DNA from: Acidobacteriota bacterium
GTDB lineage: Bacteria > Acidobacteriota > Vicinamibacteria > Vicinamibacterales > 2-12-FULL-66-21
Length of the DNA: 64,000 nucleotides
NCBI GenBank assembly: GCA_016184105.1
Contig: JACPDI010000029.1
Span: 7,905-71,904 of the forward strand
Direction: 5' to 3'
The translations under genes were made by a program, and so were the position numbers. Below, in pieces: positions 44,789-64,000 of the stretch. Under the pieces are notes generated by a model that worked only from the letters and a program-made list of their open reading frames with translations, did no database searches and was not told the origin of the DNA. Positions within the stretch are counted from its first letter, which is position 1; every line of letters starts with the position of its first letter.

Positions 44789-44826
44789 GCGCGACAGGAT
44801 ATCGCAACAGCCACCTGGATGGGGGA

Positions 44827-45957
44827 TCAGGACAGCGCGGCTTCGATGCGCCGCGCCACGTGGTCCGCGCCATCGATGCGTCGCGGCCCGGCCGGCTTCG
44901 ATTGGGCGAGCGCCTTGTCGAGCGCCGCGCGCCAGCGCCCCGCGAAGAGGTCCGCCTGCTCGATGAACGCGCAGCGGAGGAACGCGGGCATTTCGCGCAC
45001 GAGGACGGGATACTCGCGGAATCGACCGCGCGAGGTGTACACGAGCGCGGTGTCGTTGGCGAGGCACTCCGAGATGATGCCAAACCCGGGCTTCGTGATG
45101 ACCACATCCGCCGCACGGACGAGATCCTCGTAGCGAAAACCGGAGCCGTAGATGGCCCGTTCCTGCAGCATGACGACCGGCGGTTCGGGGGAGCGGGCCG
45201 TTCCAGTCGAGGTCTCGGTGACCACGACGACGTACTCGTCGAGGCAATCGATCTGCGCCGGGGAAAGCCCGCGGAGGCCGTACCCGCCGAACGACGACAG
45301 CACGACGCTCCGGTCGAGCGGCAACCCGAACGCGCGCCGTGTCTCCTCCGGATCGCGCCGCGAAAAGCGCGCGACGAACGGCACGTCCTCCACGCGGCGG
45401 ATCGACTGGAACCCGCCGTGCATCGGCAGCCGCCACGCGCCGTGGGCGTGCGCATAGGCGCGCGCGACGGTATCGATCACTCCCGGCGCCAGCCGCTCCG
45501 TTTCGTCGTAGTCCTCGTAGATCCAGTCCCACGTGAAGTTGCCCAGCGCGAACGCCGGCACGCCGGCACGCGCCGCCGCGGCGAAGGCGAGCGGCGGGAT
45601 GTCGCCGACGATGAGCAGATCGGCGGACCTGGAAGGTCCGCCCCGGCGCAGCGACTCGAGCCAGCGGGCCTCACGTTCAACGCGCTCGTCGAACGTGGCG
45701 TAGAACGCCGCCGCGCGCCGCATGGTCTCCGCAATGTCGTGCGTCAGGCTGTCACGCTGGACGATGCCCGTGTCGGTCTCCGCGGAAACGAACTCGTGCG
45801 GCACGGTCAGGGTGAGATCGAACAGCCAGCGCGGGGCGCCGGTGCGCACGACGATGCGGGTGGACGGGTGCCGGGCGCCGTACGCGTTGATGACCTCGAT
45901 GTCGCGCGAGGCATGGCCGAAGCCATGCGCGGATATGTAGAAGACCAGGCCCGGCAC
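44827..45957 (-). CDS. GT-B-fold glycosyltransferase-like protein (MurG/UGT superfamily)
   Basis: LVFYISAHGFGHASRDIEVI near the N-terminus and VITKPGFGIISECLANDTALVY near the C-terminus. The GTG at 45957 is the only start codon downstream of the lon stop. Confidence 0.6.
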   Translation of the reverse strand: MPGLVFYISAHGFGHASRDIEVINAYGARHPSTRIVVRTGAPRWLFDLTLTVPHEFVSAETDTGIVQRDSLTHDIAETMRRAAAFYATFDERVEREARWLESLRRGGPSRSADLLIVGDIPPLAFAAAARAGVPAFALGNFTWDWIYEDYDETERLAPGVIDTVARAYAHAHGAWRLPMHGGFQSIRRVEDVPFVARFSRRDPEETRRAFGLPLDRSVVLSSFGGYGLRGLSPAQIDCLDEYVVVVTETSTGTARSPEPPVVMLQERAIYGSGFRYEDLVRAADVVITKPGFGIISECLANDTALVYTSRGRFREYPVLVREMPAFLRCAFIEQADLFAGRWRAALDKALAQSKPAGPRRIDGADHVARRIEAALS

Positions 45958-45965
45958 GTGTACTT

Positions 45966-48377
45966 CTACGGCGCAGGTGCCGGGGCCGGCAATGCGATGG
46001 GGAGGACCTCGTCGAGGGTGGAGACCGGCACGAAGCGCATCTCCTTCTTCACTTCGCCCGGCAATTCCTCGGTGTCCTGGAGGTTCTGCTGCGGCAGGAC
46101 GAAGATCTTGATGCCGTGGCGCCGGGCGGCAAGCGCCTTCTCGCGGATGCCGCCGACCGGCAGCACGAGGCCAGACAGGGTGATCTCGCCGGTCATCGCC
46201 ACGTCCTCCCGGACGGGTTCCTTGCGGATCGCCGAGACCATCGCCGTGGCCATGGTGACGCCTGCCGAAGGGCCGTCCTTCGGGATCGCGCCGGCGGGCA
46301 CGTGCACGTGCAGATCGTGGCCGTCGAGGAACTTCGCGTCGATGGCGAGCTTGTCCGCCTGCTCGCGGATGTGACTGAGCGCGGCGCGGGCGGACTCCTG
46401 CATCACGTTGCCGAGCTGTCCGGTGAGCGTCACGTTGCCGTGGCCCCCCGGGAGCAGCACCGCCTCGATGAAGAGCACGTCGCCCCCGGATTCGGTCCAC
46501 GCCACGCCGGTCGCCACGCCGGGCCGCGATGTGCGGAACGCCACGTCCGGCCTGAACGGCGGCGGGCCGAGGAACTTCGCCACTTCCTCCGCCTCGACGT
46601 TCTCCACGGTTTCCAGCGGATTGGCGGCGCCCGCGGCGCGGGCCGCGACCTTCCGCGCGATCGTTCCGAGCTGCCGCTCCAGCGTACGCACCCCCGCCTC
46701 GCGCGTCCACTCGGTGATCACGCGGGTCAGCGCCGCGTCGTCGATCTCGAGCTGGTGCGGCTTCAGCCCGTTCTCGGCGATCTGGCGCGGCAGCAGGTAG
46801 CGCCGCGCGATGTGCCGCTTCTCCTCCTCGGAGTAGCCGGAGAGCGAGATCATCTCCATGCGGTCGAGCAGCGCGGGGTGGACCGTGCCGAGCTGGTTGG
46901 CCGTGGCGATGAACAGCACGCGCGAGAGATCGAGCGGGATCTCGAGATAGTGGTCGCGGAACGCGTGGTTCTGCGCCGGGTCGAGCACCTCGAGCAGCGC
47001 CGCGGCGGGATCCCCCTGGATGCCGACGCTGATCTTGTCGATCTCGTCCAGCATGAACACCGGGTTGCTCGCGCCCGCCTGCTTCATGGCCTGCGCCAGC
47101 CGGCCGGGCATCGCGCCGATGTAGGTCCGCCGGTGCCCGCGGATCTCCGCTTCATCGCGCACGCCGCCCAGCGAGATGCGGACGAACGTGCGGTTCATCG
47201 CGCGCGCGATGGACTGGCCGAGCGACGTCTTTCCCACCCCCGGCGGCCCGACGAAGCAGAGGATTGGCCCCTTGATGGTCACCGCCTGGCCCTCGGCGGC
47301 CTGGGCGGACTTGAGCTTCTGCACCGCCAGGTACTCGACGATGCGCTCCTTGACCTTGTCGAGATCGTAGTGGTCCTCGTCGAGCACGCGCCGCGCTTCG
47401 ATGGGGTCGAGCCGGTCTTCCGTGGTCTTCGCCCACGGGATCTCCAGCACCCAGTCGAGGTACGTGCGGATCATCTGGTACTCGGGAGACGCCGGGGTCA
47501 TCCGCTCCAGGCGATCGGCCTCGCGCGTGGCCACGGCGGCGACCTGTTCCGGCAGGCCCGCCTTCGCGATCGTGTCGCGTACTTCCTGCACTTCGCTGTC
47601 GGTCTCGCCCAGCTCCTGCTGGATGGCCTTGAGCTGCTGGCGCAGCACGTACTGGCGCTGCGATTCGCTGATCTCCTTCTCGGCTTTCGACTCGATGCGC
47701 CCCTTCAGCTCGAGGATGTCGATCTCGCGCGAGAGCGCGCCGGCCACCGCCGTCAGCTTCACCGAGAGATCGTTCTCCTCGAGCAGCCGCTGCTTGTCCT
47801 CCGGCTTCATGTCGAGCATGCTCGCGAGCAGGTACGCGATGCGCAGCGGATCGTCGATGGTCGTGACCAGCGCGCGCAGGTCCGGCGAGAGACCGGTGGC
47901 GAGCGACAGGGCGCGCTCGACCAGTTCCTGGATGCGGCGCACGTGCGCGTCGACCTCGAGGCTGCGCGTGGCCTGCTCGGGAAGCGGCCTGATGAGCGCC
48001 GTGATGCCCGTGCCGTCGGCAGCGCTGTTGAGGAACTCGGCGCTGGCGCGCGAGACCCCCTCGACCAGCACGCGCAGGCCGTTGGTGCCTTTCGCCATCT
48101 GGCGGACGATGCCGACCGTCCCCGTGCGCTTGAGGTCGTCCGGCCCGGGCTCTTCCTCTTCCCCCTCCTGCAGCAGGAGCAGCACCATGCGGTCCCCGGC
48201 GAGCGCGCGGTTGACCGCCTCCACCGAAACGGGGCGGCTGACGGCCAGCGGCGCGACGGTCATCGGGAACACGACGGAGCGGCGGAGCGGCAGCACCGGC
48301 AGCTCGGAGGGAAGCTGCGGCGCGCCGTTCTGCTGATCGGGCGAGGATTGATCGGTGCTGCGGCTGTTGTCGGGCAT
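45966..48377 (-). CDS. lon: ATP-dependent Lon protease (endopeptidase La)
   Basis: LON N-domain, Walker [14 protein letters not shown], and the proteolytic site [11 protein letters not shown] with a downstream Lys. Confidence 0.96.
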
Positions 48378-48413
48378 GAGTTCTCGTTGCCAGCGCCCGC
48401 GGAACGGGCGCGG

Positions 48414-50138
48414 TCAGGGTTCGAGGTGCGCGGCCCGGGCGGACGGGCGGGGCTCGGCGTACGCCGGCAGCTCCGCATCGGTCGCCAGGCGCCAGGTCAC
48501 GCGGAACGCGAGCCGGGCGATCTTCTCCAGCTTCTCGAAATTGATCTTGCCCACGTCATCCTGCGGCGTGTGGTAGTCGGGATGCAGCCCGGTCGTGAAA
48601 AAGATCGCCGGGATCCTCTGCTGCAGGAACGGCCACTGGTCGCTCCGGCGAATGAGGTTCTGCGGTGAGACGTCGAGCACCTGCCTGATCGTCAGCCCCA
48701 CGGCCGCGTTTTCCTCGCGTACGAGCGCCGAGAACGCCGGGCTGTAGGAATAGCCGAGCAGGTGCACGGTGTTGGTGTTCTCGGCGGCGGTCGTCTTCGC
48801 GAGTCCCCTGAACCGGAAGTCCGTTGGATCCGGCACGTCCTCGTTGCGTCCGATCATGTCGAGGTTCACGTTGGCGACGAGGCGTCCGGCGGGCGCCGGA
48901 TGCTCGACGAAGTACTCGGATCCAAGAAACCCTTTTTCCTCGCCGTTCCAGAGCGCAAACACGACGGTGCGGGCCGGCCTGCGGCCGCCCCGCGCGGCGG
49001 CGGCAAAGGCCTCGGCGGCCTCGATCACGCCGACGGTGCCCGAGCCGTTGTCGTCCGCGCCGTTGTACACGCGCCCCTCCGCGTCCAGGCCGTCGTGATC
49101 CATGTGCGCGCCGACGACCACGATCTGCTGCTTCAGTTCGGGGTCCGTCCCTTCGACCATGCCGACCACGTTGTGGACGACGACGCGCTCGCGCGCGAGG
49201 TCGATCGACAGCCTGGCCTGGCGGCCGGCGACGGCAAACGAGGCTGGCGCGCTGATGGCGCCGTCGCCCGCGCGCTCCAGGACGTCGTCAATGGTCTTCT
49301 TCAACGCGGCGGCCTTGCGTTCCTCCGGCACCGCTTCGGAGGACAACAGCGCTTCGGCTGCGCCGGTGGAGATGACGGCGATCGGGAGGCTCTCACGATC
49401 GACGCGCCCCGCCATCTGGAAGTTCCGGCTCCTGACCGGCGGGTCCGCGGGCCAGACGCTCTTCACGTCGCGCATCCGCGCGCGCACGATGAGGAGTCCC
49501 GCGGCGCCGTGCGCTTTCGCGTTGGCGATCTTCGCTTCCGCGCCGGCGTGCGCGGTCGGCGCGCGGCCCAGGAACCGGCTGCGCTCGTCGTCGCTCTGCG
49601 GCTCGCCGTCGAAGACGACCACGAGCCGGCCGCGGGCGTCGATGCCGGCGTAGTCGTCGTAGCGGTGTTCCGGCGCGGTGATGCCGTAGCCCGCGAACAC
49701 GACGCCGGCGGAAACCGAGCGCGACGCCGACGCGGCGTGCGGGTAGAAATCGCCGCCCGCCACGTAGCACGTCGCCACCTCGGCCCGGTTGACCTGCTCG
49801 GAGGCCACCAGCTCGTTCATCTCGCCGAGCGTGCTGAAGTACAACTCGACCGGCTGCAGGTACGCCGCCCCCGCAGCGCGTCCGAGCTGCAGGCGCTCGA
49901 AGAGAGAGGCGAGGTACAGCTCCGCGACGTGATTGCCGGCGTGGCCCGTGCCGCGCCCCTGCAGTTCATCGCTCGCGAGGAAGCGGAGATGCGCGCGCAG
50001 GTCGCCGGCGTCGATCGTGTTCGCCGCCTGCTCGACCGCGTCGGGCAGCGCGCCACCCGTGTACGCCACCCCTGACAGCGCGGCCACGACTGCCGCGAAC
50101 ACCAGTTGCATCACCGGGGCGTGCATCCGCCTGCGCAT
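48414..50138 (-). CDS. M28-family aminopeptidase with a PA domain
   Basis: Signal peptide, LRFLASDELQGRGTG, HMDHDG, GADDNGSGT, NGEEKGFLGS. Confidence 0.85.
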   Translation of the reverse strand: MRRRMHAPVMQLVFAAVVAALSGVAYTGGALPDAVEQAANTIDAGDLRAHLRFLASDELQGRGTGHAGNHVAELYLASLFERLQLGRAAGAAYLQPVELYFSTLGEMNELVASEQVNRAEVATCYVAGGDFYPHAASASRSVSAGVVFAGYGITAPEHRYDDYAGIDARGRLVVVFDGEPQSDDERSRFLGRAPTAHAGAEAKIANAKAHGAAGLLIVRARMRDVKSVWPADPPVRSRNFQMAGRVDRESLPIAVISTGAAEALLSSEAVPEERKAAALKKTIDDVLERAGDGAISAPASFAVAGRQARLSIDLARERVVVHNVVGMVEGTDPELKQQIVVVGAHMDHDGLDAEGRVYNGADDNGSGTVGVIEAAEAFAAAARGGRRPARTVVFALWNGEEKGFLGSEYFVEHPAPAGRLVANVNLDMIGRNEDVPDPTDFRFRGLAKTTAAENTNTVHLLGYSYSPAFSALVREENAAVGLTIRQVLDVSPQNLIRRSDQWPFLQQRIPAIFFTTGLHPDYHTPQDDVGKINFEKLEKIARLAFRVTWRLATDAELPAYAEPRPSARAAHLEP

Positions 50139-50155
50139 GAGGGCAGTTTACTCCA

Positions 50156-50860
50156 TCAGTAGACGCCCGGCAGAAACCGCCACCGCACGCGGCGCTTGTA
50201 TTCGCGGTAGCTGTCGCCGAATGCCTGCTCGAGGGAGCGCTCCTCGAGCGGGATGGCGAGCGCGAGGTAGAGCGTGCTGATGAGCGCGAAGGTGAACCGG
50301 CTCGCCGTCATGTATGGCGCGCCGAAGACGAGCAGAACCCAGCCCAGGTAGACCGGGTGCCGAACGATCGTGTAGGGTCCGAGCACCTGCAGCGGGGCGA
50401 GCGATTTGGCGCGCCGCACGTGCTGCACCTGTCGAATGCCGGCAAGCTCGAGGGCGTCAAGCCTCGCCGAGGCGCGCAACGCCAGGCCGATGCCCGCCAC
50501 CTGCACGGCGTAGAGCGGCCACGCCCACGCGCCGCGCACCTCGTACATCACGCCGGGCACGGGACGCCACAGCGCGCACACGACGACGAAGAGCGCACTC
50601 GCGATCCAGACGTACAGCGACCGTTCACGTTCAGGGGGCAGCACGCGCGCGAGCGCCTGCTTCACGCCCGCCCGCGGCATGATGCTGTGGTGCGTCGCGA
50701 ATGCCAGGAACAGGGCGAGGTCGAGGGCGACCGGTGTGATCCAGTCGGTCCCCGCGGCGGGGCGGCCGAGGAGCACGAGATAGAAATAGAGGAAGTAGAG
50801 CAGCGAGGCAACGAACGCGGCGCCGCCGAGCCAGGCGGCCGCGACAATGGCGGAAGACAC
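50156..50860 (-). CDS. Membrane methyltransferase of the ICMT / phospholipid-methyltransferase / NnrU-like superfamily
   Basis: Multiple TM segments. GPYTIVRHPVYLGWVLLVFG and ...EERSLEQAFGDSYREY. TATAAT lies 10 nt upstream of the GTG at 50860. Confidence 0.72.
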   Translation of the reverse strand: MSSAIVAAAWLGGAAFVASLLYFLYFYLVLLGRPAAGTDWITPVALDLALFLAFATHHSIMPRAGVKQALARVLPPERERSLYVWIASALFVVVCALWRPVPGVMYEVRGAWAWPLYAVQVAGIGLALRASARLDALELAGIRQVQHVRRAKSLAPLQVLGPYTIVRHPVYLGWVLLVFGAPYMTASRFTFALISTLYLALAIPLEERSLEQAFGDSYREYKRRVRWRFLPGVY

Positions 50861-50870
50861 GTCGCGCCGT

Positions 50871-50876
50871 ATTATA
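50871..50876 (-). promoter_or_regulatory. Consensus -10 hexamer TATAAT, 10 nt upstream of the GTG at 50860
   Basis: The minus strand reads cctccTATAATacggcgcgacGTG. Confidence 0.35.
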
Positions 50877-50992
50877 GGAGGTATGCCGGAGACGGTCGGG
50901 CCTCCAGTCAGGCGCCGCAGGTGCTCGAACTGTCCTGCACCGCGCGGTCACTGAGCATCAACAGAGGCTGCTCGTGCGAAGGAGAGGGGTTC

Positions 50993-52261
50993 TTGCGTAT
51001 CGCCATCACCGGCATCGGTGTCGTCTCTCCGTTCGGCATCGGCAGGGAACGGTTCTGGACGCAGGTCAGCCGCGGCTGCAGCGGCGTGCGGCCGATTGAG
51101 GCGTTCGACGCGAGCGAGCTGCCCTGCAAGGTGGCTGCGCCTGTTCCCCCGCTGGATGTGACCGACGTGTTCCCGCCGGGGGGCAACGGCAATGGCGGGC
51201 CGTCCGGCGGCGTGTCCGGGAAGGCCGACCCCAAACGCTACGCGAAAGTGTCGCTCATCGCGGTGCTCGCCGCGCGTGAGGCCTGGTCCGACGCCGGGCT
51301 GCGCCTCGGCGAGCCCGGTGCGGGCGTCATCGTCGGCAGCGGGGCCGGCGGCATCGACATCGCCGAGCAACAGTATCGCGAGTTCTTCACCGCGTCCGGG
51401 CGGCGCGTCACGCCCTACGCGATCCCCGTGTCGATTGTCGGCATCGTCTCCAGCGAGATTTCGATCGCGCTCGGGCTGCACGGGATCAGCCACGTGCTGT
51501 CCACGGGCTGCACGAGCTCCACCGACGCGATTGGCTACGCGGCGTCGCTGCTTCGCGCCGGCGAGGCGGACGTGCTGCTGACGGGGGGCGCGGACGCGTG
51601 CGTGACCGCCGGGATGATCTTCGGGTTCTGCCGCATGCGCGCGGTGTCCACGCGGTACAACGACACCCCCGCCGAGGCGTCGCGCCCGTTCGATCGGGGG
51701 CGGGACGGATTCGTGCTGGGCGAGGGGGCCTGGATGCTCGCGCTCGAGCGCGAGGATCGCGCGCGCGCCCGCGGCGCGCGCGTGTACGCCACGGTTGATG
51801 GCTACGGCTCGACGTGCGACGCGTACCATCGCGTGCAGATGGACCCTGACGGCGAGCAGATCGTGCGCGCGATGCGGCTGGCGATCGAGCGGTCCGGCCG
51901 CGCGGCGGAGGAGATCGGCTACGTCAATTTCCACGGGACGTCCACGCAGCTCAACGACGCCGTCGAGTCGCGTTGCGTGCGGCGGGTGTTCGGCGCGCGC
52001 GCCGACGCGGTGCCGGGCTCGTCCACCAAGTCGATGATCGGGCATCCGCAGGGGGCGAGCGGCGCGGCCGGGATCGTCACAACGGCCCTCGCCCTGTCTC
52101 ATGGGTTCCTGCCGCCGACGATCAACCAGCGCGAGCCGGACCCGGAGTGCGACCTCGACGTGATCCCGAACGCGGGACGGCCGGGGCGTGTCGAAGCGGC
52201 GCTCTGCAACTGCCTCGGGTTCGGCTCGAAGAACAGCGCCATCGTGCTGGGACGCGGATGA
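50993..52261 (+). CDS. Beta-ketoacyl synthase (KAS I/II, FabF-like, Cys-His-His triad)
   Basis: IAITGIGVVSPFG, active-site STGCTSSTDAIG, HGTSTQLND, SMIGHPQGASG. TTG start at 50993 with GAAGGAGAGG upstream. The track ORF starts far upstream. Confidence 0.85.
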   Translation: MRIAITGIGVVSPFGIGRERFWTQVSRGCSGVRPIEAFDASELPCKVAAPVPPLDVTDVFPPGGNGNGGPSGGVSGKADPKRYAKVSLIAVLAAREAWSDAGLRLGEPGAGVIVGSGAGGIDIAEQQYREFFTASGRRVTPYAIPVSIVGIVSSEISIALGLHGISHVLSTGCTSSTDAIGYAASLLRAGEADVLLTGGADACVTAGMIFGFCRMRAVSTRYNDTPAEASRPFDRGRDGFVLGEGAWMLALEREDRARARGARVYATVDGYGSTCDAYHRVQMDPDGEQIVRAMRLAIERSGRAAEEIGYVNFHGTSTQLNDAVESRCVRRVFGARADAVPGSSTKSMIGHPQGASGAAGIVTTALALSHGFLPPTINQREPDPECDLDVIPNAGRPGRVEAALCNCLGFGSKNSAIVLGRG

Positions 52262-53388
52262 ACCCGGACGTCATCGTGGTTGGCGGCGGGCCGGCGGGAA
52301 GCGTCGCGGCCATCGTGCTGGCGCGCGCCGGCGTGCGCGTGCGCCTCTTCGACCGCGCGCGGTTCCCGCGGCGGAAACTGTGCGGCGACACCCTGAACCC
52401 GGGCGTGAGAGCGCTCCTGGCGCGACTGGGGCTCTCGGGAGCGACCGAACAGGGCGGCACGCCCGTCGCCGGCATGGTGGTCACCGGTGGGGGAGTGGCG
52501 GTGACCGGCCGCTATCCGCGCGGTGTGACCGGCCTCGCCCTCACGCGGGCCGTGCTCGACGCGCGGCTCCTCGACGCGGCGGGGAAGGCCGGCGTGGGAA
52601 TCGACGAAGGGACGCTGGTGTCCGGCGCGTACTGTCCGCGCGGCACGACGGTCGGCGGCGTGCGCGTGGCGCAACGCGGCGGCGGCGCGCGCGGGATCGT
52701 GCGCGCGCGCCTCTGCATTGCCGCCGACGGCCGCCACTCCACGCTGGCGTTCACGCTCGGGCTCTCGCGCCATCCGGAGAGCCCCCGGCGCTGGGCCGTG
52801 GGGAGCTATTACACCGACGTGGAGGGCATGACCGACTTCGGCGAGATGCACGTACGGCGGGGCCACTACATCGGCGTCGCGCAGGTGCCCGGCGGCCTGG
52901 TGAACGCGTGCCTGGTGACGCCCGATCGCGCGCGCCTGAAAGATCCCGAGCGGGCGCTGCGCGAAACGCTCGCAGGCGATCCGATGCTTCGCGAGCGGTT
53001 CGCGCGCGCACGACCCGTCGCGCCGGTCGTCACGCTCGGGCCGCTCGCCGTTGATGCCCGCGCTGCGGGGATGCCGGGGCTCCTTCTTGCGGGCGATGCG
53101 GCCGGCTTCATCGATCCGATGACGGGCGATGGCCTGCGGTTCGCGATACGGGGAGGCGAGCTGGCGGCGCGCGCGGCGCTGCACGCGCTCGAGACCGGCG
53201 ATCAGAACGCACACGAGCGGCTGGCCGGCCTGCGGCGCGAGTTCCGGCGCAAGCGCACGTTCAACCGCGCGTTGCGCGCGCTCGTCGGCTCCCCCGGCGC
53301 CATCCGCGTCGCCTCGGCAGGGGCGCGAATGGCCCCGGCGGCGCTGCGCTACGTGATCGACGTCGCCGGAGACGTCCGCGCCGCATGA
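52258..53388 (+). CDS. FAD-dependent oxidoreductase of the geranylgeranyl-reductase family
   Basis: DVIVVGGGPAGSVAAIVLARAG dinucleotide fold, LLAGDAAGFIDPMTGDG. The ATG overlaps the KAS stop (ATGA). Confidence 0.85.
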   Translation: MNPDVIVVGGGPAGSVAAIVLARAGVRVRLFDRARFPRRKLCGDTLNPGVRALLARLGLSGATEQGGTPVAGMVVTGGGVAVTGRYPRGVTGLALTRAVLDARLLDAAGKAGVGIDEGTLVSGAYCPRGTTVGGVRVAQRGGGARGIVRARLCIAADGRHSTLAFTLGLSRHPESPRRWAVGSYYTDVEGMTDFGEMHVRRGHYIGVAQVPGGLVNACLVTPDRARLKDPERALRETLAGDPMLRERFARARPVAPVVTLGPLAVDARAAGMPGLLLAGDAAGFIDPMTGDGLRFAIRGGELAARAALHALETGDQNAHERLAGLRREFRRKRTFNRALRALVGSPGAIRVASAGARMAPAALRYVIDVAGDVRAA

Positions 53389-55343
53389 CCCCACACGCCC
53401 GCATCATCAGCACCCTCGTCATCATCTTCGGGCTCATGGCCGTGGAAGCGCGGCGCTCGGCTCGCAACGAGCGCGCGCTCCGCGCGCGCGGCGCCGTCGA
53501 ACCGCCGTCCGACGTGTATGCCTGGATGCGGATCGTTTACCCGCTCGCGTTCATCGCGCCCGCCGTCGAGGGATGGCTGCGGGTGGCGGATCCGCGGGAA
53601 TGGTGGCTCGCCGGGCTCGTGGCCTTCGCCGTGGCGAAGGGGCTGAAGTACTGGGCCGTGCGATCGCTCGCCGATCGGTGGTCCTTTCGCGTGCTCGTCG
53701 TTCCGGGCGCGCCCCTCGTCACGCGCGGCCCGTATCGTTTCCTGTCCCACCCCAACTACCTCGCGGTCGCAGGGGAGATCGCCGGGGCGGCGCTGCTCCT
53801 GGGCGGACCCCGCACCGGCGCGCTCTTTACAATTCTCTTCGGCTGGCTGATGCTGAGGCGCATCACAGTGGAGGAGCGCGCGTTGCAGGTCCCGAAACCG
53901 AGTGCTGAGCCCGCTGGCCTCCCGCGATGGGCCGGTTGGTTCGACGCGCTCTCCGTCACCCTGTTGCTCATCGCTCTCAAGGTCGCCATCAGCAGCGGGC
54001 TGCGCGCGTCCGCGTTCGGGCAGCTCATCACGGTGCGCCAGGCGTGGCGCCCGGCGCTCATCGCGCTGGCGCTCATGGCGTTCCGGCACTGGCGCGCGCC
54101 GCGGCCGCACCTCGTCCAGAGGATCTGGGAGGCGCTCGGTGCCGCCCGGCGCCGGCCCTATGCGGACATCGTTCGCATCTGGGCCGTCAGCCGGTTCGGC
54201 GTCGTCATGGTCGGCGCCGTTGCCGTGCTCATCATCGGCCGCCCGCCCACGATGGAGTACCGCGTCTCAAACGATCTGCTGGCCGATCTCCCGGGACGAT
54301 GGGACGCGGGGTGGTACGCGGCGATCGCGCAGGAAGGCTACCGCGACCGCGCGCGCGCAGGTGAGCCGGCGCAGCGGGCGGTCGCCTTCTTTCCGGCGTA
54401 CCCGATGCTGCTGCGCGCGGCGTCGGTGTTCACCGAGCCGCAGCGGGTGGCGGACATGACGTACGACCGGTACATCGAGCTGCGGCAGTCGCGGCTCGTC
54501 TGGGCCGGCCTGCTGATTGCCGTCGCGATCTTCCTGCCGGCGCTCGTCGCCCTGTACCGGTGGATGGAGGTGCGGAGCACGCCCGACGCCGCGCTTGCCA
54601 CCGTCGTCTTCCTCTCGGCGTATCCGTTCGCGGTCTTCTACAGCGCGCCCTACACGGAATCGCTGTTTCTGTTTTCCGCCGTGAGCGCCTGCCTCGCGTT
54701 CGAGCGAGGGCGGTGGCTTGCCGCCGCCGCGGCGGGACTGCTGGCGGGGCTGACGCGCCCCAACGGCGCGATGTTGAGCCTGACGCTTGGACTGATCGCG
54801 ATCGCGCCGCTGCTGGCGCGCGATCGGCGCGCATCGATCCGGGAACTCCCGGGCCGGCTCCTCGTGGCGGCGATGCCCGGCGCCGGCATGCTGGCGTTTT
54901 CGGCGTACACGTACTCGCTCTCCGGCGATCCGTTCGCGTGGATGAAGGTCCAGGAGGCGTGGGGACGCAGCTTCGCGGGATCGACGGCCTACGCGGAGTG
55001 GGTCGTCGTGACCGTGTGGCACGACGGGCTCCTCGCGTGGGTGCGACGCTCGCCCGCGGAGTTCATCCAGACGCTCGCCGCCCTCTTCGCGCTCGGCATG
55101 ACCTGGCCCGTCTACCGGCGGCTCGGCGCTCCCTATGCCGTGTTCATGCTCGCCAACCTGCTGCCCCCGCTGTTCAAGGGGGGCGTGCTGTCGATCGGGC
55201 GGCTGACTTCCACGCTGTTCCCGATGTTCGCCGCCCTGGCGCTCATCGTCCCTCCCTCGCGCCGCGCCGGCTGGCTGCTGCTCTTCGCGTTAGGACAGGG
55301 TTTGATCGCCGCTTTGTTCTTCACCTGGCGGCCGGTGTATTAG
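53385..55343 (+). CDS. Fusion protein: N-terminal ICMT-like methyltransferase domain + C-terminal PIG-V/GT76-like integral-membrane glycosyltransferase domain
   Basis: N-terminal residues 1-170 contain VTRGPYRFLSHPNYLAVAGE...TVEERAL. The C-terminal polytopic part contains WDAGWYAAIAQEGY...AFFPAYPMLLR. The ATG overlaps the upstream stop (ATGA). Confidence 0.72.
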   Translation: MTPHARIISTLVIIFGLMAVEARRSARNERALRARGAVEPPSDVYAWMRIVYPLAFIAPAVEGWLRVADPREWWLAGLVAFAVAKGLKYWAVRSLADRWSFRVLVVPGAPLVTRGPYRFLSHPNYLAVAGEIAGAALLLGGPRTGALFTILFGWLMLRRITVEERALQVPKPSAEPAGLPRWAGWFDALSVTLLLIALKVAISSGLRASAFGQLITVRQAWRPALIALALMAFRHWRAPRPHLVQRIWEALGAARRRPYADIVRIWAVSRFGVVMVGAVAVLIIGRPPTMEYRVSNDLLADLPGRWDAGWYAAIAQEGYRDRARAGEPAQRAVAFFPAYPMLLRAASVFTEPQRVADMTYDRYIELRQSRLVWAGLLIAVAIFLPALVALYRWMEVRSTPDAALATVVFLSAYPFAVFYSAPYTESLFLFSAVSACLAFERGRWLAAAAAGLLAGLTRPNGAMLSLTLGLIAIAPLLARDRRASIRELPGRLLVAAMPGAGMLAFSAYTYSLSGDPFAWMKVQEAWGRSFAGSTAYAEWVVVTVWHDGLLAWVRRSPAEFIQTLAALFALGMTWPVYRRLGAPYAVFMLANLLPPLFKGGVLSIGRLTSTLFPMFAALALIVPPSRRAGWLLLFALGQGLIAALFFTWRPVY

Positions 55344-55363
55344 ACTCCCCCGAGGAGGGGAGC

Positions 55364-56527
55364 ATGCGCGTTTCGCGTAGGGGATTCGTCCGTGCGGCGG
55401 GCGTGGCGGGCGCGTCCGCACTCGTTTCTCTGCGGGGTGCGCAGCTCCTCGCGCGCGGCCGCGAAGCGGCTGTGGGCGAAGGACGGGAGTTCGAGTTCGT
55501 TCCCGCCAGCGCGACCGGCCCGATTCGCCTCAGCAGCAACGAGAACCCGATCGGGCCCCCGCCGGTTGCCGTCGAAGCGCTGATGGCGGCGCTGGCCGCC
55601 GACGCGCCGAGGTATCCCGGCGGTCCGACGCAGAAAGTCACCGAGCGCATCGCCGCCCACCATTCGGTGCCCGTTGAATCGATCGTCTGCGGCAGCGGGT
55701 CCGGCGAGATTCTTCGAATGGCGGTGTACGCGTTCACCAGCCCGCAGCGCGCGCTGATCACCGCCGCCCCCTCTTTCGAGGATCCCACGCGTTACGCGGA
55801 GCTGCTGGGCGCGCGCGTCGACGCGGTGCCCGTGACCCGTGACCTGAAGCTCGATCTCGACGCGATGGCGGGCCGCGCGCCCGGCGCCGGACTGATCTTC
55901 GTCTGCAACCCCAACAACCCGACGGCGACGGTTCACGGCTCGAAGGTCATCTCCGAGTTTGTCGAGCGCGTGCAGCGAGTGTCTCCCGGGACGACAGTCC
56001 TCATCGACGAGGCCTATCACCACTACGTGCAGGATCCCGCCTACCAGACCGCCCTGCCTCTCGCGCTGGGGCGTCCGAACGTCGTGGTGTGCCGTACGTT
56101 TTCGAAGCTCTACGGGATGGCGGGTCTCCGACTCGGCTATGCCGTGGGCCGGCCGGAGACCATCGCGGCGCTCCGCCGCCAGAGGCTGGCAAACGGTGTG
56201 AATGCGCTGGTGGCGCCGGCCGCCGCCGCGGCGCTCGGTGATGACGGGCTGATGGCCCGTGAGCGCGCCCGCAACCACGCAGCGCGCGAGTTCGCACGGA
56301 CGGCGCTGGCGGAACTCGGGTATCGGTCGATCCCCTCCGAGGCGAACTTCATCATGGTCGACGTGCGACGCGACGTGCGGGAGTTCAATCGCGCGTGCGC
56401 CGAGCGCGGCGTCCTGATCGGGCGGCCCTTCCCGCCGCTGGTCACGCACGCCCGTATCTCCATCGGGACGATGGAGGAAATGCAGGCGGCGCTGGACGTC
56501 TTCGAGAGGGTACTTGCCGCCAGCTAG
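55364..56527 (+). CDS. Class I/II PLP-dependent aminotransferase (histidinol-phosphate aminotransferase family) with a twin-arginine signal
   Basis: MRVSRRGFVRAAGVAGASAL, LSSNENPIGPP, FVCNPNNPT, RTFSKLYGMAGLRLGY (PLP lysine). GAGGAGGGGAG RBS. Confidence 0.85.
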   Translation: MRVSRRGFVRAAGVAGASALVSLRGAQLLARGREAAVGEGREFEFVPASATGPIRLSSNENPIGPPPVAVEALMAALAADAPRYPGGPTQKVTERIAAHHSVPVESIVCGSGSGEILRMAVYAFTSPQRALITAAPSFEDPTRYAELLGARVDAVPVTRDLKLDLDAMAGRAPGAGLIFVCNPNNPTATVHGSKVISEFVERVQRVSPGTTVLIDEAYHHYVQDPAYQTALPLALGRPNVVVCRTFSKLYGMAGLRLGYAVGRPETIAALRRQRLANGVNALVAPAAAAALGDDGLMARERARNHAAREFARTALAELGYRSIPSEANFIMVDVRRDVREFNRACAERGVLIGRPFPPLVTHARISIGTMEEMQAALDVFERVLAAS

Positions 56528-56595
56528 GCGGCGTTCACGTCCTCCGGCGCATCGTGCCGCGCAATCCGCCGGCTGCCGGCTGGCGTCAAAAGAAG

Positions 56596-59157
56596 ATGAG
56601 CGGCGGACAAGCTGCCTCCTGCCGTGCGTATCGCGGCGCCGCCTTTCTCGGCGTCGCCATGACGGCGCTGCTGTGCGCGCCGACGGGGGCCGCGCGCGCG
56701 CAGGTGCCGCCGCCGGTTCCGGAAGTCGTCCCTGCCGACCCGTCGTTCCTGCAGTCCGCCACCACGCTGCTCGCGCACGGCAAGCTTGACGAGGCGGTGG
56801 CGCTCGCCGAGCAGCGTGCCGCGGTCGATCCCGAGGCGCGCGCGATCCTGGCGCGCGTGGCGCTTCGCAGAGGCCGGGTCGAAGAGGCGCTGGCGCTGCT
56901 GACACCCGCTGCCGCACAGGATCCGGCCGGGCAGGCCGCGCTCGAGCTTGCCCTGCTGCAGCGCGATCGTGGGCGGCACGAAGAAGCGTTTGGCCTGCTC
57001 GGACCGATTGCCGCGGCGGGCGCCGGGGCAGGCGATGTGGCAGCCATCGTGCGCGTGGCGCGCGCCGCGGCGGCACTGGGCGAGTTTCGCCAGGCCAACC
57101 AGCTGTTCCGCCGTGCCTCGCGCGCGGCCGGAGGCGACCCGGCCGTGGAGACGGCGTGGGGCGAGCTGTTCCTCGAAAAACATAACCACGAAGACGCGGC
57201 GCGCTCGTTCGGCGAGGCGCTGAAGGGGGATCCCGAGTGGGCGCCGGCCCATGCGGGTCTGGCGCGCGCGCTCATGGACGGTAATCCGCCGGCGGCCGCG
57301 GGCGCTGCGGCTCGCGCGCTGGCCATCGACCCCACGATGGAAGACGCGCTCCTCACGCAGGCGCACCTGCAGATCGACGCGGGCAAGCGCGCCGAGGCGC
57401 GCGCCCTCGTGCGGCGCGCGCTGGAGGCCAATCCGGCCAGCCTTGCGGCGCGCGCGCTCCTTGCCGCTCTCGCGCGCGTCGACGATCGCGCGGCGGAGTT
57501 CGACGCCGAGGTGGCGCGGCTGCTCGAGGCGAACCCGCGGTACGCCGCGGCCTACGACACGGCGTCGGACCTGCTCGCGCGCGCGTACCGGTTCGAAGAA
57601 GCCGTGGCGCTCGGACGGAAAGCCATGGACACCGACCCGAGCAATGCCGCCGTGACGGCTCGCCTCGGCCTCAATCTGATGCGGACGGGCGACGAAGTCG
57701 AAGCCCGCCGGTCGCTCGATGCCGCCTTCCGCATCGATCCGTATGACGTCGTCACCTACAACCTGCTGGCGCTGCTCGACACGCTGGATGATTTCGAGAC
57801 CGTCGAGGAGCCGCCGTTCACGTTCCGCTTTCACAAGAGCGAGGCGGCGGTGCTGAAGGAGTATGCGCCTGCGCTGGCCCGCGAGGCGGTGTCGGCGCTG
57901 GCGAAGCGCTACTCGTTCACGCCGCGCGGTCCGATCCTCGTGGAGATCTTTCCCCGCCACGACGATTTCGCCGTCCGGACGCTGGGGCTGCCGGGGCTGC
58001 TCGGCGCGCTCGGCGCCTGCTTCGGTCGCGTCGTGACGATGGATTCGCCGAAGGCGCGACCGCCGAACACCTTCAGCTGGCAGGCGACGCTGTGGCACGA
58101 GCTGGCCCACGTATTCACGCTGCAGATGTCAAAGCAGCGCGTGCCGCGGTGGCTGACCGAAGGCATCTCCGTCTACGAAGAGGGGCGGGCGCGGCCCGAA
58201 TGGGGACGCGAGATGGACGTCGCCTTCGCCCGGGCGTGGCGGGACGGCCGGGTGATCCCGCTCGCGGAGCTGAATGAAGGTTTTACGAGGCCGGAGACCA
58301 TCGCGCTGGCGTACTACCAGGCGTCGCTGCTCGTGGAGCACCTCGTGAAGCTTCGCGGCGATGCCGCGCTCATCGCGCTCGTCACCGCGTACGGCGACGG
58401 ACTGGACGACGAGGCGGCGCTGCAGCGCGCCGCGAATCTCTCGATGGTGTCCTTGCAGGGGAGTTTCGACGCGGCGCTCAAGACGCGATTCGAGAAGCTC
58501 GCGCACGTCTTGCGCGAGGTGGCCGGGCTGAAGACGGCCAGCGAGCCGGGCGCGCTGGCGACGCTCGCCGCACAGCACCCCGACAGCTTTGCCGTGCAGA
58601 TGACGCTCGGGAAGGCGCTGGCCGATGCGGGCGACCGCGCCGGTGCGGTCGCGGCCTATGAGCGCGCGGCGGCGCTGGTGCCGCAGGCCGCGGGACCTGA
58701 AAGCCCGCGCGCGCGGCTTGCGGCGCTGGCCGAGTCGCATGGCGATCACGCGCGCGCCGTGCAGGAGTTGACCGCGCTGACAGCCGTCGATCACACCAGC
58801 GTGGACGCGGCCAGGCGGCTGCTCGCGGCGGCGGAGCGCACGGGCGATGCCGCGGCCGCGCGCGCCGCGGCCACGCGCGTCGTGGCGCTCGATCCGTTTG
58901 ACAGCGCGGCGCACACCGCGCTGGGGCGGGCAGCCCTGCACGACGGCGACCACGCCGCCGCAGCCCGCGAATTCCGCGCGGCGCTGAACACGGGACCCGC
59001 CGACAGCGCCGCCGCGCATTGCGATCTCGGCGAGGCGTACTTCGCGGCGGGCCGCCAGGCGGACGCCAAGCGCGAGGCGCTCGCCTCGCTCGACGTCGCG
59101 CCGCTCTTCGAGCGCGCGCAGGAACTCCTGCTGAGAACCGTGGAGGTCCGGCGGTGA
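56596..59157 (+). CDS. Secreted TPR-repeat protein with an embedded HEXXH metallopeptidase (peptidase MA-like) domain
   Basis: Signal-like N-terminus. Alanine-rich TPR-like repeats on both sides of WHELAHVFTLQ...WLTEGISVYEE. The start is uncertain. Confidence 0.68.
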   Translation: MSGGQAASCRAYRGAAFLGVAMTALLCAPTGAARAQVPPPVPEVVPADPSFLQSATTLLAHGKLDEAVALAEQRAAVDPEARAILARVALRRGRVEEALALLTPAAAQDPAGQAALELALLQRDRGRHEEAFGLLGPIAAAGAGAGDVAAIVRVARAAAALGEFRQANQLFRRASRAAGGDPAVETAWGELFLEKHNHEDAARSFGEALKGDPEWAPAHAGLARALMDGNPPAAAGAAARALAIDPTMEDALLTQAHLQIDAGKRAEARALVRRALEANPASLAARALLAALARVDDRAAEFDAEVARLLEANPRYAAAYDTASDLLARAYRFEEAVALGRKAMDTDPSNAAVTARLGLNLMRTGDEVEARRSLDAAFRIDPYDVVTYNLLALLDTLDDFETVEEPPFTFRFHKSEAAVLKEYAPALAREAVSALAKRYSFTPRGPILVEIFPRHDDFAVRTLGLPGLLGALGACFGRVVTMDSPKARPPNTFSWQATLWHELAHVFTLQMSKQRVPRWLTEGISVYEEGRARPEWGREMDVAFARAWRDGRVIPLAELNEGFTRPETIALAYYQASLLVEHLVKLRGDAALIALVTAYGDGLDDEAALQRAANLSMVSLQGSFDAALKTRFEKLAHVLREVAGLKTASEPGALATLAAQHPDSFAVQMTLGKALADAGDRAGAVAAYERAAALVPQAAGPESPRARLAALAESHGDHARAVQELTALTAVDHTSVDAARRLLAAAERTGDAAAARAAATRVVALDPFDSAAHTALGRAALHDGDHAAAAREFRAALNTGPADSAAAHCDLGEAYFAAGRQADAKREALASLDVAPLFERAQELLLRTVEVRR

Positions 59158-59969
59158 GCGGCCGTCGGCTGCTCGCGGCGTGCGCGCTCGTGCTGCTGGC
59201 CGCGGCCGCCGCGGCGCAACGGCCGGATCGCGGCGCCGCGCCGCCGCAGGCGGCTCCGCCCGCCGCGGCCGGCGACGGCGGCCGATTCGCCGGGCTGCAG
59301 TGGACGTTCGTGCGCGTGCGCTACACGGCCTGGGCCGGCCGCGGCCGCTTCGGCGGGTCGCTGTACGACGAGCCGTGGGCGATCGACTACAACGCCGCGG
59401 AGCAGAACCTCACCCGGCGGTTGCGCAGCGTCACCTCGATCGACGCGGCCGATCCCATCGTGCTGTCGCTCGACGATCCCCGGCTGCCGCTGTACCCCTG
59501 GCTGTACGTCGTCGAGCCGGGCAACCTGAGGCTCCAGGACATCGAGGTCCCCATTCTGCGGGACTTTCTCCTGCGGGGCGGCACGCTCACCTTCGACGAC
59601 TTCCACGGGCCGGTCGAGTGGGCGAACCTCGAGCGCGAGATGAAGCGGGTGTTTCCCGACCGCGAGATCGTCGAGCTGACGCCCGCCCATCCGATCTTCA
59701 GCTGCTTCTACAAGATCGATCGCTACCCGCAGACACCGGGGCTCGGCTCGTTTCTGCAGGGGCGCACGTGGGAAAAAGGAGGCTTCGTGCCCCACCTGCG
59801 CGCGATCCTGGACGATGCGGCGCGCCCGATGGTGCTGATCAACTGGAACACGGACATGGGCGACGGCATCGAGTGGTCGAACGCCGCCGAGTATCCCGGA
59901 TACGTGAAGTACACGGCGGAGGCGTATCGCATGATGATCAACGAGATCATCTATGCCCTCACGCACTAG
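59154..59969 (+). CDS. DUF4159 domain protein
   Basis: Signal peptide, then the pattern WAIDYNAAEQNL...PWLYVVEPG...GGTLTFDDFHG...INWNTDMGDGIEW, as I recall for DUF4159. The GTG overlaps the upstream stop (GTGA). Confidence 0.75.
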   Translation: MSGRRLLAACALVLLAAAAAAQRPDRGAAPPQAAPPAAAGDGGRFAGLQWTFVRVRYTAWAGRGRFGGSLYDEPWAIDYNAAEQNLTRRLRSVTSIDAADPIVLSLDDPRLPLYPWLYVVEPGNLRLQDIEVPILRDFLLRGGTLTFDDFHGPVEWANLEREMKRVFPDREIVELTPAHPIFSCFYKIDRYPQTPGLGSFLQGRTWEKGGFVPHLRAILDDAARPMVLINWNTDMGDGIEWSNAAEYPGYVKYTAEAYRMMINEIIYALTH

Positions 59970-59977
59970 GAGGCGGC

Positions 59978-61000
59978 ATGCAGGTGCCCCTGACAGGTGT
60001 GAACGGAGAGGTGGCGGCCCACGCGATGGCGGATCGCGTGGCCCAGGGACGCGAGCGGATCCTCGCGGAGATTCGCAAGGTCATCGTCGGACAGGACGAC
60101 GTGATCGACCAGGTCCTGCTGGCGCTCTTCACCGGCGGGCACTGCCTGATCACCGGCGTCCCGGGGCTGGCGAAGACGCTCCTGATCAAGACGCTCGCCG
60201 AGATCCTGGATCTCAGTTTCAAGCGCATCCAGTTCACGCCGGACCTGATGCCCGCCGATATCACCGGCACCGAGATCCTCGACGAGGAGGCGGGGCACCG
60301 CGCGCTCCGCTTCGTGAAGGGCCCGGTGTTCGCGCAGATCATCCTCGCGGATGAGATCAACCGCACGCCGCCGAAGACGCAGGCCGCGCTTCTCGAAGCG
60401 ATGCAGGAATACCACGTGACCGCCGCCGGGCGGACCTACGAGCTGGATCGTCCCTTCTTCGTGCTCGCCACGCAGAACCCGGTGGAACTCGAAGGCACGT
60501 ATCCGCTGCCCGAAGCGCAGCTCGATCGCTTCATGTTCAACGTCGTGATGAGCTACCTGCCGGAGGACGACGAAGTCCGCGTGGTGACGGAGACGACCGG
60601 CGCCGAGCGGCCCCGCCCGTCGACGGTCATGACCGGACCGGACATCCTGGAGTTCCAGCGGCTCGTGCGCGAGGTGGTGGTCTCCGATGATGTCGCGCGC
60701 TACGCGGTGAGGCTCGCGTCGGCGTCGCGCCCGAACAAGAACGGCCTCGACTTCGTGGAGAAGTGGGTGAAATGGGGGGCGGGCCTGCGGGCGTCGCAGT
60801 CGCTGATCCTCGGGTCGAAGGCGCGCGCGCTCACGCGCGGCCGCTATCACGTCTCGGTCGGCGACGTGCAGGCGCTCGCATCGCCGATCCTCCGCCACCG
60901 CATCATTCCGAACTTCTACGCCGAGTCCGAGCGGATCGCGGCCGACGACATCGTCCACCGGCTGCTCGAGAGCGTGCCGCCGCCGCGGAGCGGGCTGTGA
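59978..61000 (+). CDS. MoxR-family AAA+ ATPase
   Basis: VIVGQDDVIDQVLLAL, Walker A GVPGLAKT, Walker B ILADEINRTPPKTQAALLEAMQE, ATQNPVELEGTYPLPEAQLDRF. GGAGG RBS. Confidence 0.92.
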   Translation: MQVPLTGVNGEVAAHAMADRVAQGRERILAEIRKVIVGQDDVIDQVLLALFTGGHCLITGVPGLAKTLLIKTLAEILDLSFKRIQFTPDLMPADITGTEILDEEAGHRALRFVKGPVFAQIILADEINRTPPKTQAALLEAMQEYHVTAAGRTYELDRPFFVLATQNPVELEGTYPLPEAQLDRFMFNVVMSYLPEDDEVRVVTETTGAERPRPSTVMTGPDILEFQRLVREVVVSDDVARYAVRLASASRPNKNGLDFVEKWVKWGAGLRASQSLILGSKARALTRGRYHVSVGDVQALASPILRHRIIPNFYAESERIAADDIVHRLLESVPPPRSGL

Positions 61001-63782: not shown

Positions 63783-64000
63783 GTCCGCAACTCGAGATCT
63801 CGACGTTTCTGGGGGCGATCCGAAAACGCTGGCGGTGGCTCGCGGCGCTGCGCGCCGGATCGTCGGCCGTCGCGGGCGTGGCGGTGGCGCTTGGCGTGCT
63901 CGCCCTCGCGGTCCGGCTGGCGCGCCCGACCGCCGACGCGGTCATGGCGATCGCCGTGCTGGCGATGGCCGCCGCGATCGCGTGGGTCGTGCGCGCGGTG
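63779..64000 (+). CDS. Membrane protein, 5' part only (runs off the right edge)
   Basis: The ATG at 63779 overlaps the upstream stop (ATGA). MSPQLEISTFLGAIRKRWRWLAALRAGSSAVAGVAVALGVLALAV... has two hydrophobic stretches. It is open-ended, so it is not in the ORF track. Confidence 0.5.
   Translation, partial: MSPQLEISTFLGAIRKRWRWLAALRAGSSAVAGVAVALGVLALAVRLARPTADAVMAIAVLAMAAAIAWVVRAV

Follow-up and report, generated by a model that had tools for sequence, protein, structure and literature searches.

A ketosynthase gene cassette of Vicinamibacterales as a candidate counterpart of type III polyketide synthase phenolic-lipid operons

The 64,000-nucleotide stretch analysed here (hereafter the window) comes from contig JACPDI010000029.1 of an Acidobacteriota bacterium of the order Vicinamibacterales, and between positions 50156 and 56527 it carries five genes: an ICMT-like membrane methyltransferase (MT1) and, diverging from it, a ketosynthase of the β-ketoacyl-ACP synthase type (KAS; ACP, acyl carrier protein), a flavoprotein, an ICMT-family methyltransferase fused to a glycosyltransferase (MT2::GT), and an aminotransferase. 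We propose, at a probability of about 60%, that the core of this cluster, MT1 together with the KAS-flavoprotein-MT2 run, is a KAS-driven counterpart of the phenolic-lipid cassettes srsABC, ftp and hidABC, which are built around a type III polyketide synthase (PKS). A preliminary description of the window had already likened the cluster to srs-type operons with a KAS in the place of the type III PKS, and this idea holds up well, since the type III PKS loci of Acidobacteriota share partner families with the KAS loci and the two condensing enzymes exclude each other among genomes.

Results

Comparison with known phenolic-lipid systems

The ftp operon of Myxococcus xanthus combines a type III PKS with a methyltransferase, an ACP, a fatty acyl-AMP ligase (FAAL) and a flavoenzyme. 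The srsABC operon of Streptomyces griseus encodes the type III PKS SrsA, the ICMT-family O-methyltransferase SrsB and the flavoprotein hydroxylase SrsC (PMC13730376). The hidABC (hierridin) genes of picocyanobacteria encode a methyltransferase, an FAD oxidoreductase and a synthase in the orders A>B>C and C>A>B, and the PKSs of the mtr-fdo-t3pks operons of Planctomycetota make alkylresorcinols (PMC8086630, PMC10896814).

With srsABC the window shares the set of a condensing enzyme, a membrane ICMT-family methyltransferase and an FAD oxidoreductase, a likeness of family and layout and not of alignment with SrsB and SrsC. It differs in using a FabF-fold Cys-His-His KAS where srs has a chalcone-synthase-fold type III PKS, and in adding both a divergent second ICMT/MddA-like gene and a GT-C glycosyltransferase fused to the methyltransferase. 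The likeness to hidABC and mtr-fdo-t3pks lies in other Acidobacteriota, where both hid gene orders are seen with a class I methyltransferase and a flavoprotein next to a PKS or a KAS, whereas the window has an ICMT-type methyltransferase, not a class I one, and a KAS as its synthase. The ftp layout is approached by two acidobacterial PKS loci described below (L147 and L155), whose flavoproteins belong to the family of the window flavoprotein; unlike ftp, the window has neither an ACP nor an FAAL gene in the cluster, and its KAS is presumably supplied by the housekeeping ACP. Because there is no type III PKS, the cassette falls outside the srs, hid and ftp types as they are defined, even though MT2 provides the adjacent methyltransferase dependent on S-adenosylmethionine (SAM). 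Literature searches for a pathway that joins a KAS, an ICMT-type methyltransferase and a flavoprotein found no described KAS-based version.

The KAS is distinct from the housekeeping FabF

Both halves of the KAS are recognised by Pfam (ketoacyl-synt N-terminal 132 bits, C-terminal 117 bits), and its Cys-His-His residues align with those of Bacillus subtilis FabF in the segments GCTSS (Cys), AYHRV (His) and NFHGTS (His). The STKSMIGH lysine block and the GFG gate are intact, and the signature motifs of the protein read STGCTSSTDA, DAYHRV, GHPQGA and GFGSKN. The KAS thereby has the fold, triad and gate of a housekeeping FabF (KAS II), but it reaches only 437-438 bits against the fabF model TIGR03150, under the equivalog cut-off of 493.75, lies outside a fab/acpP cluster and belongs to a separate clade. 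The housekeeping fabF of the same genome scores 659.5 bits, over the cut-off, sits directly beside acpP on another contig (C55), and encodes a protein that is 38.8% identical to the KAS. That the KAS might be the only fabF of the organism, which the preliminary description had named among the ways in which its idea could fail, is therefore excluded. An ACP gene, for which the same description had suggested looking nearby, is absent from the contig of the KAS, and neither an ACP nor an acyl-AMP ligase gene is present in the cluster.

A maximum-likelihood tree placed all 28 cassette-linked KAS proteins, from Vicinamibacterales and from other Acidobacteriota, in one clade (support 100/100); the housekeeping FabF proteins formed a clade of their own (97/94), and other ketosynthase (KS) paralogues also fell outside the KAS clade. 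Twenty-one positions are fixed differently between the KAS clade and FabF, and the changes include TAC(S/A) to TGCTSS around the catalytic Cys, I108 to A/G, GHLLG to GHPQG and GFGG(T/H)N to GFGSKN. By its sequence the KAS is a second, divergent paralogue that belongs to a distinct, cassette-linked acidobacterial clade.

The N-terminal loop of the KAS (residues ~60-78, positions 51170-51230) holds a 15-residue glycine-rich insertion, FPPGGNGNGGPSGGVSG, which is missing from FabF and from members of the KAS clade outside the order.

Conservation of the cassette within and beyond the order

A scan of species representatives brought up over 500 loci whose KAS is related to that of the window, and the best 80 of them, with KAS proteins 72-80% identical to it, were used for the comparison within Vicinamibacterales. 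The KAS is by far the best conserved member of the cassette across these loci. MT1 was found upstream and divergent in 66 of 76 evaluable loci (87%, median identity 50%), the flavoprotein gene was adjacent to the KAS gene in 68 of 74 (92%, median identity 56%), and MT2 was present in 65 of 70 (93%, median identity 53%), so that co-conservation of the core genes is borne out. The four-gene chain from the KAS to the aminotransferase, which had been described as the unit, is not: the glycosyltransferase was present in 35 of 64 evaluable loci (55%, median identity 42%) and the aminotransferase in 5 of 64 (8%, median identity 54%). Its recurrence across 80 species-level genomes of Vicinamibacterales makes the arrangement more than a chance one.

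Matches to the KAS at the scale of the phylum fall into two tiers, one of 70-74% identity that is confined to the same order and one of 48-60% in other acidobacterial families. Proteins of the second tier are closer to the window KAS (48-56%) than to FabF (40-45%). One large subclade consists of Thermoanaerobaculia by source names, and a search for related proteins started from a distant KAS returned only names of Thermoanaerobaculia and unclassified Acidobacteria. A homologue of the flavoprotein adjoins the KAS in 17 of 20 loci from outside the order, and most of these loci have a third gene, for an MT2-like ICMT or for a class I SAM methyltransferase of 235 aa (Methyltransf_25/UbiE-like). 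The three genes are arranged as KAS>MT>FAD, MT>FAD>KAS or KAS>FAD>ICMT (MT, methyltransferase; FAD, flavoprotein), in neighbourhoods that differ from that of the window. MT1 was absent from the KAS and type III PKS cassettes that were examined outside the order, and so were the glycosyltransferase and the aminotransferase. With this recurring linkage and the single KAS clade, the conserved unit, as judged from gene content, is the KAS plus the flavoprotein plus a methyltransferase.

Several of the KAS cassettes outside the order (L120, L121, L130 and L131) are followed by a gene for a YceI-like lipid/polyisoprenoid-binding protein (PF04264, 87 bits). A lipid/isoprenoid-binding protein also adjoins the type III PKS operon of 'Saltatorellus ferox' (PMC10896814), which gives a further parallel between the two kinds of cassette.

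KAS and type III PKS share partners and exclude each other

Presence of a type III PKS was scored as a match to its C-terminal domain, PF02797, which had no match anywhere in the window genome. Among 251 genomes of the phylum, 48 were positive for the KAS clade, 84 for a type III PKS and none for both, and four taxonomic families hold both states in different genomes. A set of 41 close relatives, which overlaps the phylum set, gave the same picture, with at least 26 KAS-positive genomes, 7 PKS-positive ones (G021, G022, G026, G029, G030, G035 and G039) and none with both.

The type III PKS genes keep the company of the same families as the KAS genes. Of 20 acidobacterial type III PKS loci, 16 have next to the PKS a member of the same class I methyltransferase and/or flavoprotein family, or an MT2-like ICMT. 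Their genes run MT>FAD>PKS, PKS>MT>FAD or PKS-ICMT-(putative ACP)-(putative FAAL)-FAD, and these layouts agree with those of hidABC and the Planctomycetota operons (PMC8086630, PMC10896814) and of srsABC (PMC13730376). The last order is that of L147 and L155, where the PKS and ICMT genes are followed by genes for an 80-86-aa protein, a 587-590-aa protein and the flavoprotein, the ACP and FAAL being read from size and position only. ICMT homologues of MT2 (31-45% identity) directly follow the type III PKS in G021, G022, G030, G035, L139, L147 and L155.

Two of these genomes, G021 and G022, come from sister genera within the family of the window and amount to a natural swap. Both are without the KAS and MT2, and both retain at the old locus, among the same neighbours, the flavoprotein orthologue (53-54% identical, 331-348 bits) together with the glycosyltransferase; G021 retains MT1 as well. 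On another contig each has a type III PKS gene with an ICMT gene directly behind it, and neither pair has a flavoprotein homologue next to it. The simplest reading of these gene contents is that KAS plus MT2 and type III PKS plus ICMT may replace each other as front ends that supply one and the same downstream enzyme, and the retention of the flavoprotein through the exchange suggests that its substrate is similar in both.

The flavoprotein

The flavoprotein matches FAD_binding_3 with 71.8 bits, and its best NCBIfam match is the geranylgeranyl-reductase superfamily TIGR02032 (138.2 bits, under the cut-off of 158.8); the score against MenJ is 72 bits. It carries the motifs GGGPAG, FPRRKLCG, ADGRHS and GDAAGFIDPMTGDG. 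The Cys of FPRRKLCG, the counterpart of the Cys that geranylgeranyl reductases have near the flavin in their RxxCG motif, is present and is invariant among the family members compared, and the YxWxFP block of geranylgeranyl reductases is replaced by HYIGVAQVP. The best match in the PDB is the halogenase 8zop (93.8 bits), in which GWLWYIP aligns with HYIGVAQVP; a flavin-dependent halogenase could be discarded, as the WxWxIP motif is absent. A tblastn search with the flavoprotein against the plasmids of PLSDB gave no match.

KAS-linked and PKS-linked flavoproteins interleave in the flavoprotein tree and are separate from the paralogues within the window genome. A single PKS-linked flavoprotein, from the class to which the window belongs, groups with KAS-linked ones (98/91), and this group neighbours the Vicinamibacterales clade of the window on a weakly supported branch (82/32). 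All the KAS- and PKS-linked flavoproteins carry GxGxxG, FPRxK(V/L)CG and GDAAG..DP.TG.G. The label 'flavin reductase' from the preliminary description is unproven, and by analogy with SrsC and HidB the protein may be a hydroxylase.

Weighing of the proposal

Several points speak against the proposal. From Lon on the upstream side to a MoxR/Bat-like module on the downstream side, the entire neighbourhood is collinear across most of the order, so that synteny within the order is on its own weak proof of a functional link, that of MT1 included, and synteny arguments for this region need controls from outside the order. The hypergeometric P value of 2e-10 for the exclusivity of KAS and type III PKS is naive and not corrected for phylogeny. 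False negatives are likely in the presence/absence calls, with no KS match at all in G017 (81% complete, 580 contigs); if the related locus L054 (6747 nt), which carries a KAS at 77% identity, is the same contig as G017:C401, the call for G017 is itself a false negative. The flavoprotein and the methyltransferase are likened to HidA and HidB, as to SrsB and SrsC, by family and layout and not by direct alignment. A FabF-type enzyme ordinarily catalyses one condensation, and neither iteration nor cyclisation by the KAS is evident from its sequence. The active-site segment is no more PKS-like than it is like fatty-acid synthesis, scoring 39-43 bits against FabF and mitochondrial KAS (43 bits for the latter) and 36 bits against the PKS ketosynthases GfsA and actinorhodin KS. 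Finally, because its Cys motif is typical of geranylgeranyl reductases, the flavoprotein may be a reductase.

The collinear neighbourhood could mean that there is no common pathway and that the genes are neighbours through regional synteny. The KAS would then serve as a spare FabF in bulk lipid synthesis, the flavoprotein would reduce quinones as MenJ does, MT1 would methylate thiols in the manner of MddA, and the glycosyltransferase and aminotransferase would be unrelated envelope enzymes. Such a reading would accommodate the intergenic gaps, which vary from -3 to more than 300 nt among relatives, the resemblance of MT1 to MddA along its full length, and the name 'menaquinone-9 beta-reductase' that some sources give to flavoprotein homologues. 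It has to contend with the linkage of KAS, flavoprotein and methyltransferase that persists beyond Vicinamibacterales in other gene orders and other neighbourhoods, with two ATGA overlaps in the window, with type III PKS genes that have the same partner families and never co-occur with the KAS in a genome, and with the distance of the KAS from the housekeeping FabF; we consider it very improbable.

A second alternative keeps the pathway and changes the product to a modified fatty acid that is neither aromatic nor a pyrone. The KAS would then carry out one specialised elongation, giving a beta-keto, unusually long or branched chain, the flavoprotein would be a C=C reductase, the ICMT-type enzymes would methylate a carboxyl or hydroxyl group, and the exclusivity with PKS would reflect redundant membrane physiology. 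The fully FabF-like catalytic apparatus fits this well, with the RR of the FabF 'GPRRxSPF' segment kept as SGRRVTPY, and so do the best PDB matches of the KAS, which are FabF proteins (324 bits, B. subtilis FabF top) ahead of type II PKS ketosynthases (253 bits), the scores of its active-site segment, and the Cys motif of the flavoprotein together with its scores against geranylgeranyl reductases and MenJ. However, the same Cys-bearing flavoprotein family flanks type III PKSs, and the hid and srs systems give aromatic products (PMC10896814); moreover, G021 and G022 keep the flavoprotein while exchanging KAS and MT2 for PKS and ICMT. Taking both sides together we regard a modified fatty acid as rather unlikely, and a KAS-driven counterpart of the type III PKS cassettes as the better account of the core.

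Organisation of the locus

The genes of Table 1 were recovered by open reading frame (ORF) listing and by a gene caller based on codon-usage log-likelihood ratios, and the genes, junctions and domain calls of the preliminary description were all confirmed by direct reading and by profile scores. The KAS starts at TTG 50993 behind GAAGGAGAGGGG, and an ORF from GTG 50357 is spurious upstream of 50993; the exact 422-aa KAS protein is already recorded in sequence databases (exact look-up). The KAS/flavoprotein and flavoprotein/MT2 junctions are ATGA overlaps at 52258-52261 and 53385-53388, a sign of translational coupling that also speaks for the proposal. The stop codon of MT2::GT (TAG, 55341-55343) is followed by 20 nt that include the strong ribosome-binding site GAGGAGGGGAG and then by the aminotransferase ATG at 55364. 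A scan of 49900-56800 for promoters, terminators and Rfam families gave nothing informative, and the MT1/KAS intergenic region held no sigma-70-like site, terminator or Rfam match.

Table 1 Features of the KAS cluster and its flanks in the window.
Feature	Position	Strand	Length	Description
Upstream flank	43502-50138			M24 peptidase, 376-aa protein without Pfam match (relatives weakly GT1-like), Lon protease, M28 peptidase
MT1	50156-50860	-	234 aa	Polytopic ICMT/PEMT/MddA-like membrane methyltransferase, divergent from KAS
MT1/KAS intergenic region	50861-50992		132 nt	Presumed shared promoters; holds KAS ribosome-binding site GAAGGAGAGGGG
KAS	50993-52261	+	422 aa	FabF-fold ketosynthase, Cys-His-His triad
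Flavoprotein	52258-53388	+	376 aa	FAD-dependent oxidoreductase
MT2::GT fusion gene	53385-55343	+	652 aa	
MT2 domain	53385-53909	+	Fusion residues 1-175	ICMT-family membrane methyltransferase
GT domain	53910-55343	+	Fusion residues 176-652	GT-C-fold polytopic glycosyltransferase, weakly PIG-V-like
Aminotransferase	55364-56527	+	387 aa	Class I/II aminotransferase dependent on pyridoxal phosphate (PLP), predicted twin-arginine translocation (TAT) signal
Downstream flank	56596-64000			TPR-HEXXH protein, MoxR/Bat-like module

MT1 scores 23.2 bits against ICMT and 23.3 bits against PEMT, both just short of the Pfam cut-offs, and carries the C-terminal motifs RHPVYLG and PLEERSLE. Its match to the MddA model NF045656 spans positions 41-234 of the 238 of the profile at 137.6 bits; with a cut-off of 270, MT1 could be rejected as an equivalog of the methanethiol S-methyltransferase MddA. 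The MT2 domain matches ICMT with 70.7 bits over fusion residues 81-168.

At residues ~118-122 of MT2 (positions 53730-53750) the window and a genome of the same genus read SHPNY, and most relatives have the canonical ICMT RHPNY. Two related loci from long-read metagenome-assembled genomes have MT2 split over frames (L030:8234-8684 and L033:8179-8629), which fits assembly indels and not gene decay.

The glycosyltransferase, the fusion and the aminotransferase

The PIG-V assignment of the GT domain is weak: PF04188 matches residues 297-461 with 27.7-28.6 bits (cut-off 22.4) and covers 150 of 443 profile positions. An AlphaFold model of the domain (pLDDT 87) retrieved only GT-C enzymes in Foldseek (STT3, ALG9, ALG12, ArnT, Emb, PMT and PIG-M; probability 1.0, TM ~0.4), and the domain has an invariant motif R-x-D-x-x-W-Y (R130, D132, W135, Y136) that would lie in the first external loop. 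Because of the GT-C-only matches and this motif we read the domain as a putative polyprenyl-phosphate-sugar-dependent transferase that would work on the outer face of the membrane.

The fusion of a methyltransferase with a glycosyltransferase, which formed part of the preliminary description, is present in six distinct 652-aa sequences from independent assemblies (exact-sequence cluster look-up), so that by sequence it is real and confined to the lineage of the window. It is not general: none of the 26 relatives with adjacent MT2 and GT genes has it, and MT2 is a separate gene in all relatives examined. With respect to the fusion, the window differs from the same-genus genome by a 5-nt indel.

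The gene for a polytopic membrane protein of ~628 aa without a Pfam match (cluster c16, represented by L069:10975-12861) lies between MT2 and the GT-C gene in 23 related loci of Vicinamibacterales, which explains the 2-kb 'gap' of these loci. It may be a second GT-C-like enzyme, and a homologue lies 5 kb from the type III PKS of L140.

The aminotransferase scores 160.6 bits against Aminotran_1_2 and falls under the cut-offs of the PtaA-type models (NF051461, 244.6 bits, cut-off 500; PRK09105, 297.5 bits, cut-off 444). Its N-terminus, MRVSRRGFVRAAGVAGASALVSL, read by eye, is TAT-signal-like, with SRRGFV followed by a hydrophobic stretch. An aminotransferase gene within the cluster was also found in four related genomes (G001, G003, G011 and G028), and the in-cluster copies, which come from a few genera and occupy at least three positions (MT2-AT-GT, GT-AT and MT2-AT; AT, aminotransferase), rank among the closest orthologues of that in the window. 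The TAT-signal family as a whole is expanded in Vicinamibacterales, where a genome may hold up to 8 copies, often as tandem pairs and for the most part away from the cluster; such a number of periplasmic PLP aminotransferases is unusual. As far as gene content can tell, the aminotransferase is best treated as an occasional accessory outside the core.

These data also bear on a wider reading in which all five genes form one pathway to a phenolic glycolipid that is glycosylated in the periplasm and transaminated, so as to bear an amino sugar. The single MT2::GT polypeptide in six independent assemblies, the aminotransferase start 20 nt downstream behind a strong ribosome-binding site, the closely orthologous in-cluster aminotransferases of several genera, and the flavoprotein and glycosyltransferase that remain together in G021 and G022 would all agree with it. 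The low frequencies of both genes in the order (8% and 55% of the loci), the multi-copy aminotransferase family sited mostly elsewhere, the lack of either gene in KAS and type III PKS cassettes outside the order, and the lack of the fusion in all 26 relatives with adjacent genes do not, and a five-gene pathway seems doubtful to us.

Discussion

The chemistry that we infer for the steps of the cassette follows the proposal that the core is a KAS-driven counterpart of the type III PKS cassettes. The KAS would most likely take a fatty acyl chain and malonyl units carried on the housekeeping ACP of fatty-acid synthesis; acyl- and malonyl-ACP are the likely feed because there is no ACP or acyl-AMP ligase gene in the cluster and the RR of FabF is retained. 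It would then provide the alkyl chain with a head group of beta-keto or polyketide nature, for which a triketide alkylpyrone or a resorcinol-type ring appears most plausible. If methyltransferases and flavoproteins of the same families are to work behind either front end, the product of the KAS should resemble that of the type III PKS, that is, an alkyl chain with a head group derived from a poly-beta-keto intermediate. The least demanding route for the KAS would be two condensations without reduction and then a lactonisation that gives a 4-hydroxy-6-alkyl-2-pyrone. Reactions of this class underlie the triacetic-lactone derailment of fatty-acid synthases, and B. subtilis BpsB takes pyrones of this class as its substrates. 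MT2, and possibly MT1, would O-methylate the head group, and the flavoprotein would hydroxylate it in the manner of SrsC and HidB or else reduce it, so that the end product would be a methoxylated, amphiphilic membrane lipid. The GT-C enzyme, which is found in roughly half of the Vicinamibacterales, may use a polyprenyl-phosphate sugar at the periplasmic face to glycosylate this product or a different acceptor in the envelope.

A bolder version goes further, and we put it forward tentatively, as something that may well prove wrong. The FabF-fold KAS clade would be an ancient one of stand-alone, ACP-dependent alkylpyrone or alkylresorcinol synthases, and in Vicinamibacteria and Thermoanaerobaculia it would repeatedly have traded places with type III PKSs within phenolic-lipid cassettes; in Vicinamibacterales its product would then be glycosylated in the periplasm by the GT-C enzyme, giving a new class of envelope phenolic glycolipid.

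If a FabF-type enzyme does fill the role of a type III PKS, the cassette would make phenolic or pyrone lipids by a new enzymatic route. Tools for genome mining are likely to overlook it, since a KAS on its own resembles primary metabolism. The natural swaps, with G021 and G022 on one side and their KAS-bearing relatives on the other, offer a ready comparative design. Both Vicinamibacterales and Thermoanaerobaculia are abundant in soil and mostly uncultured. We know of no described specialised lipids from them, and the product of the cassette could serve as a lipid biomarker for these lineages.

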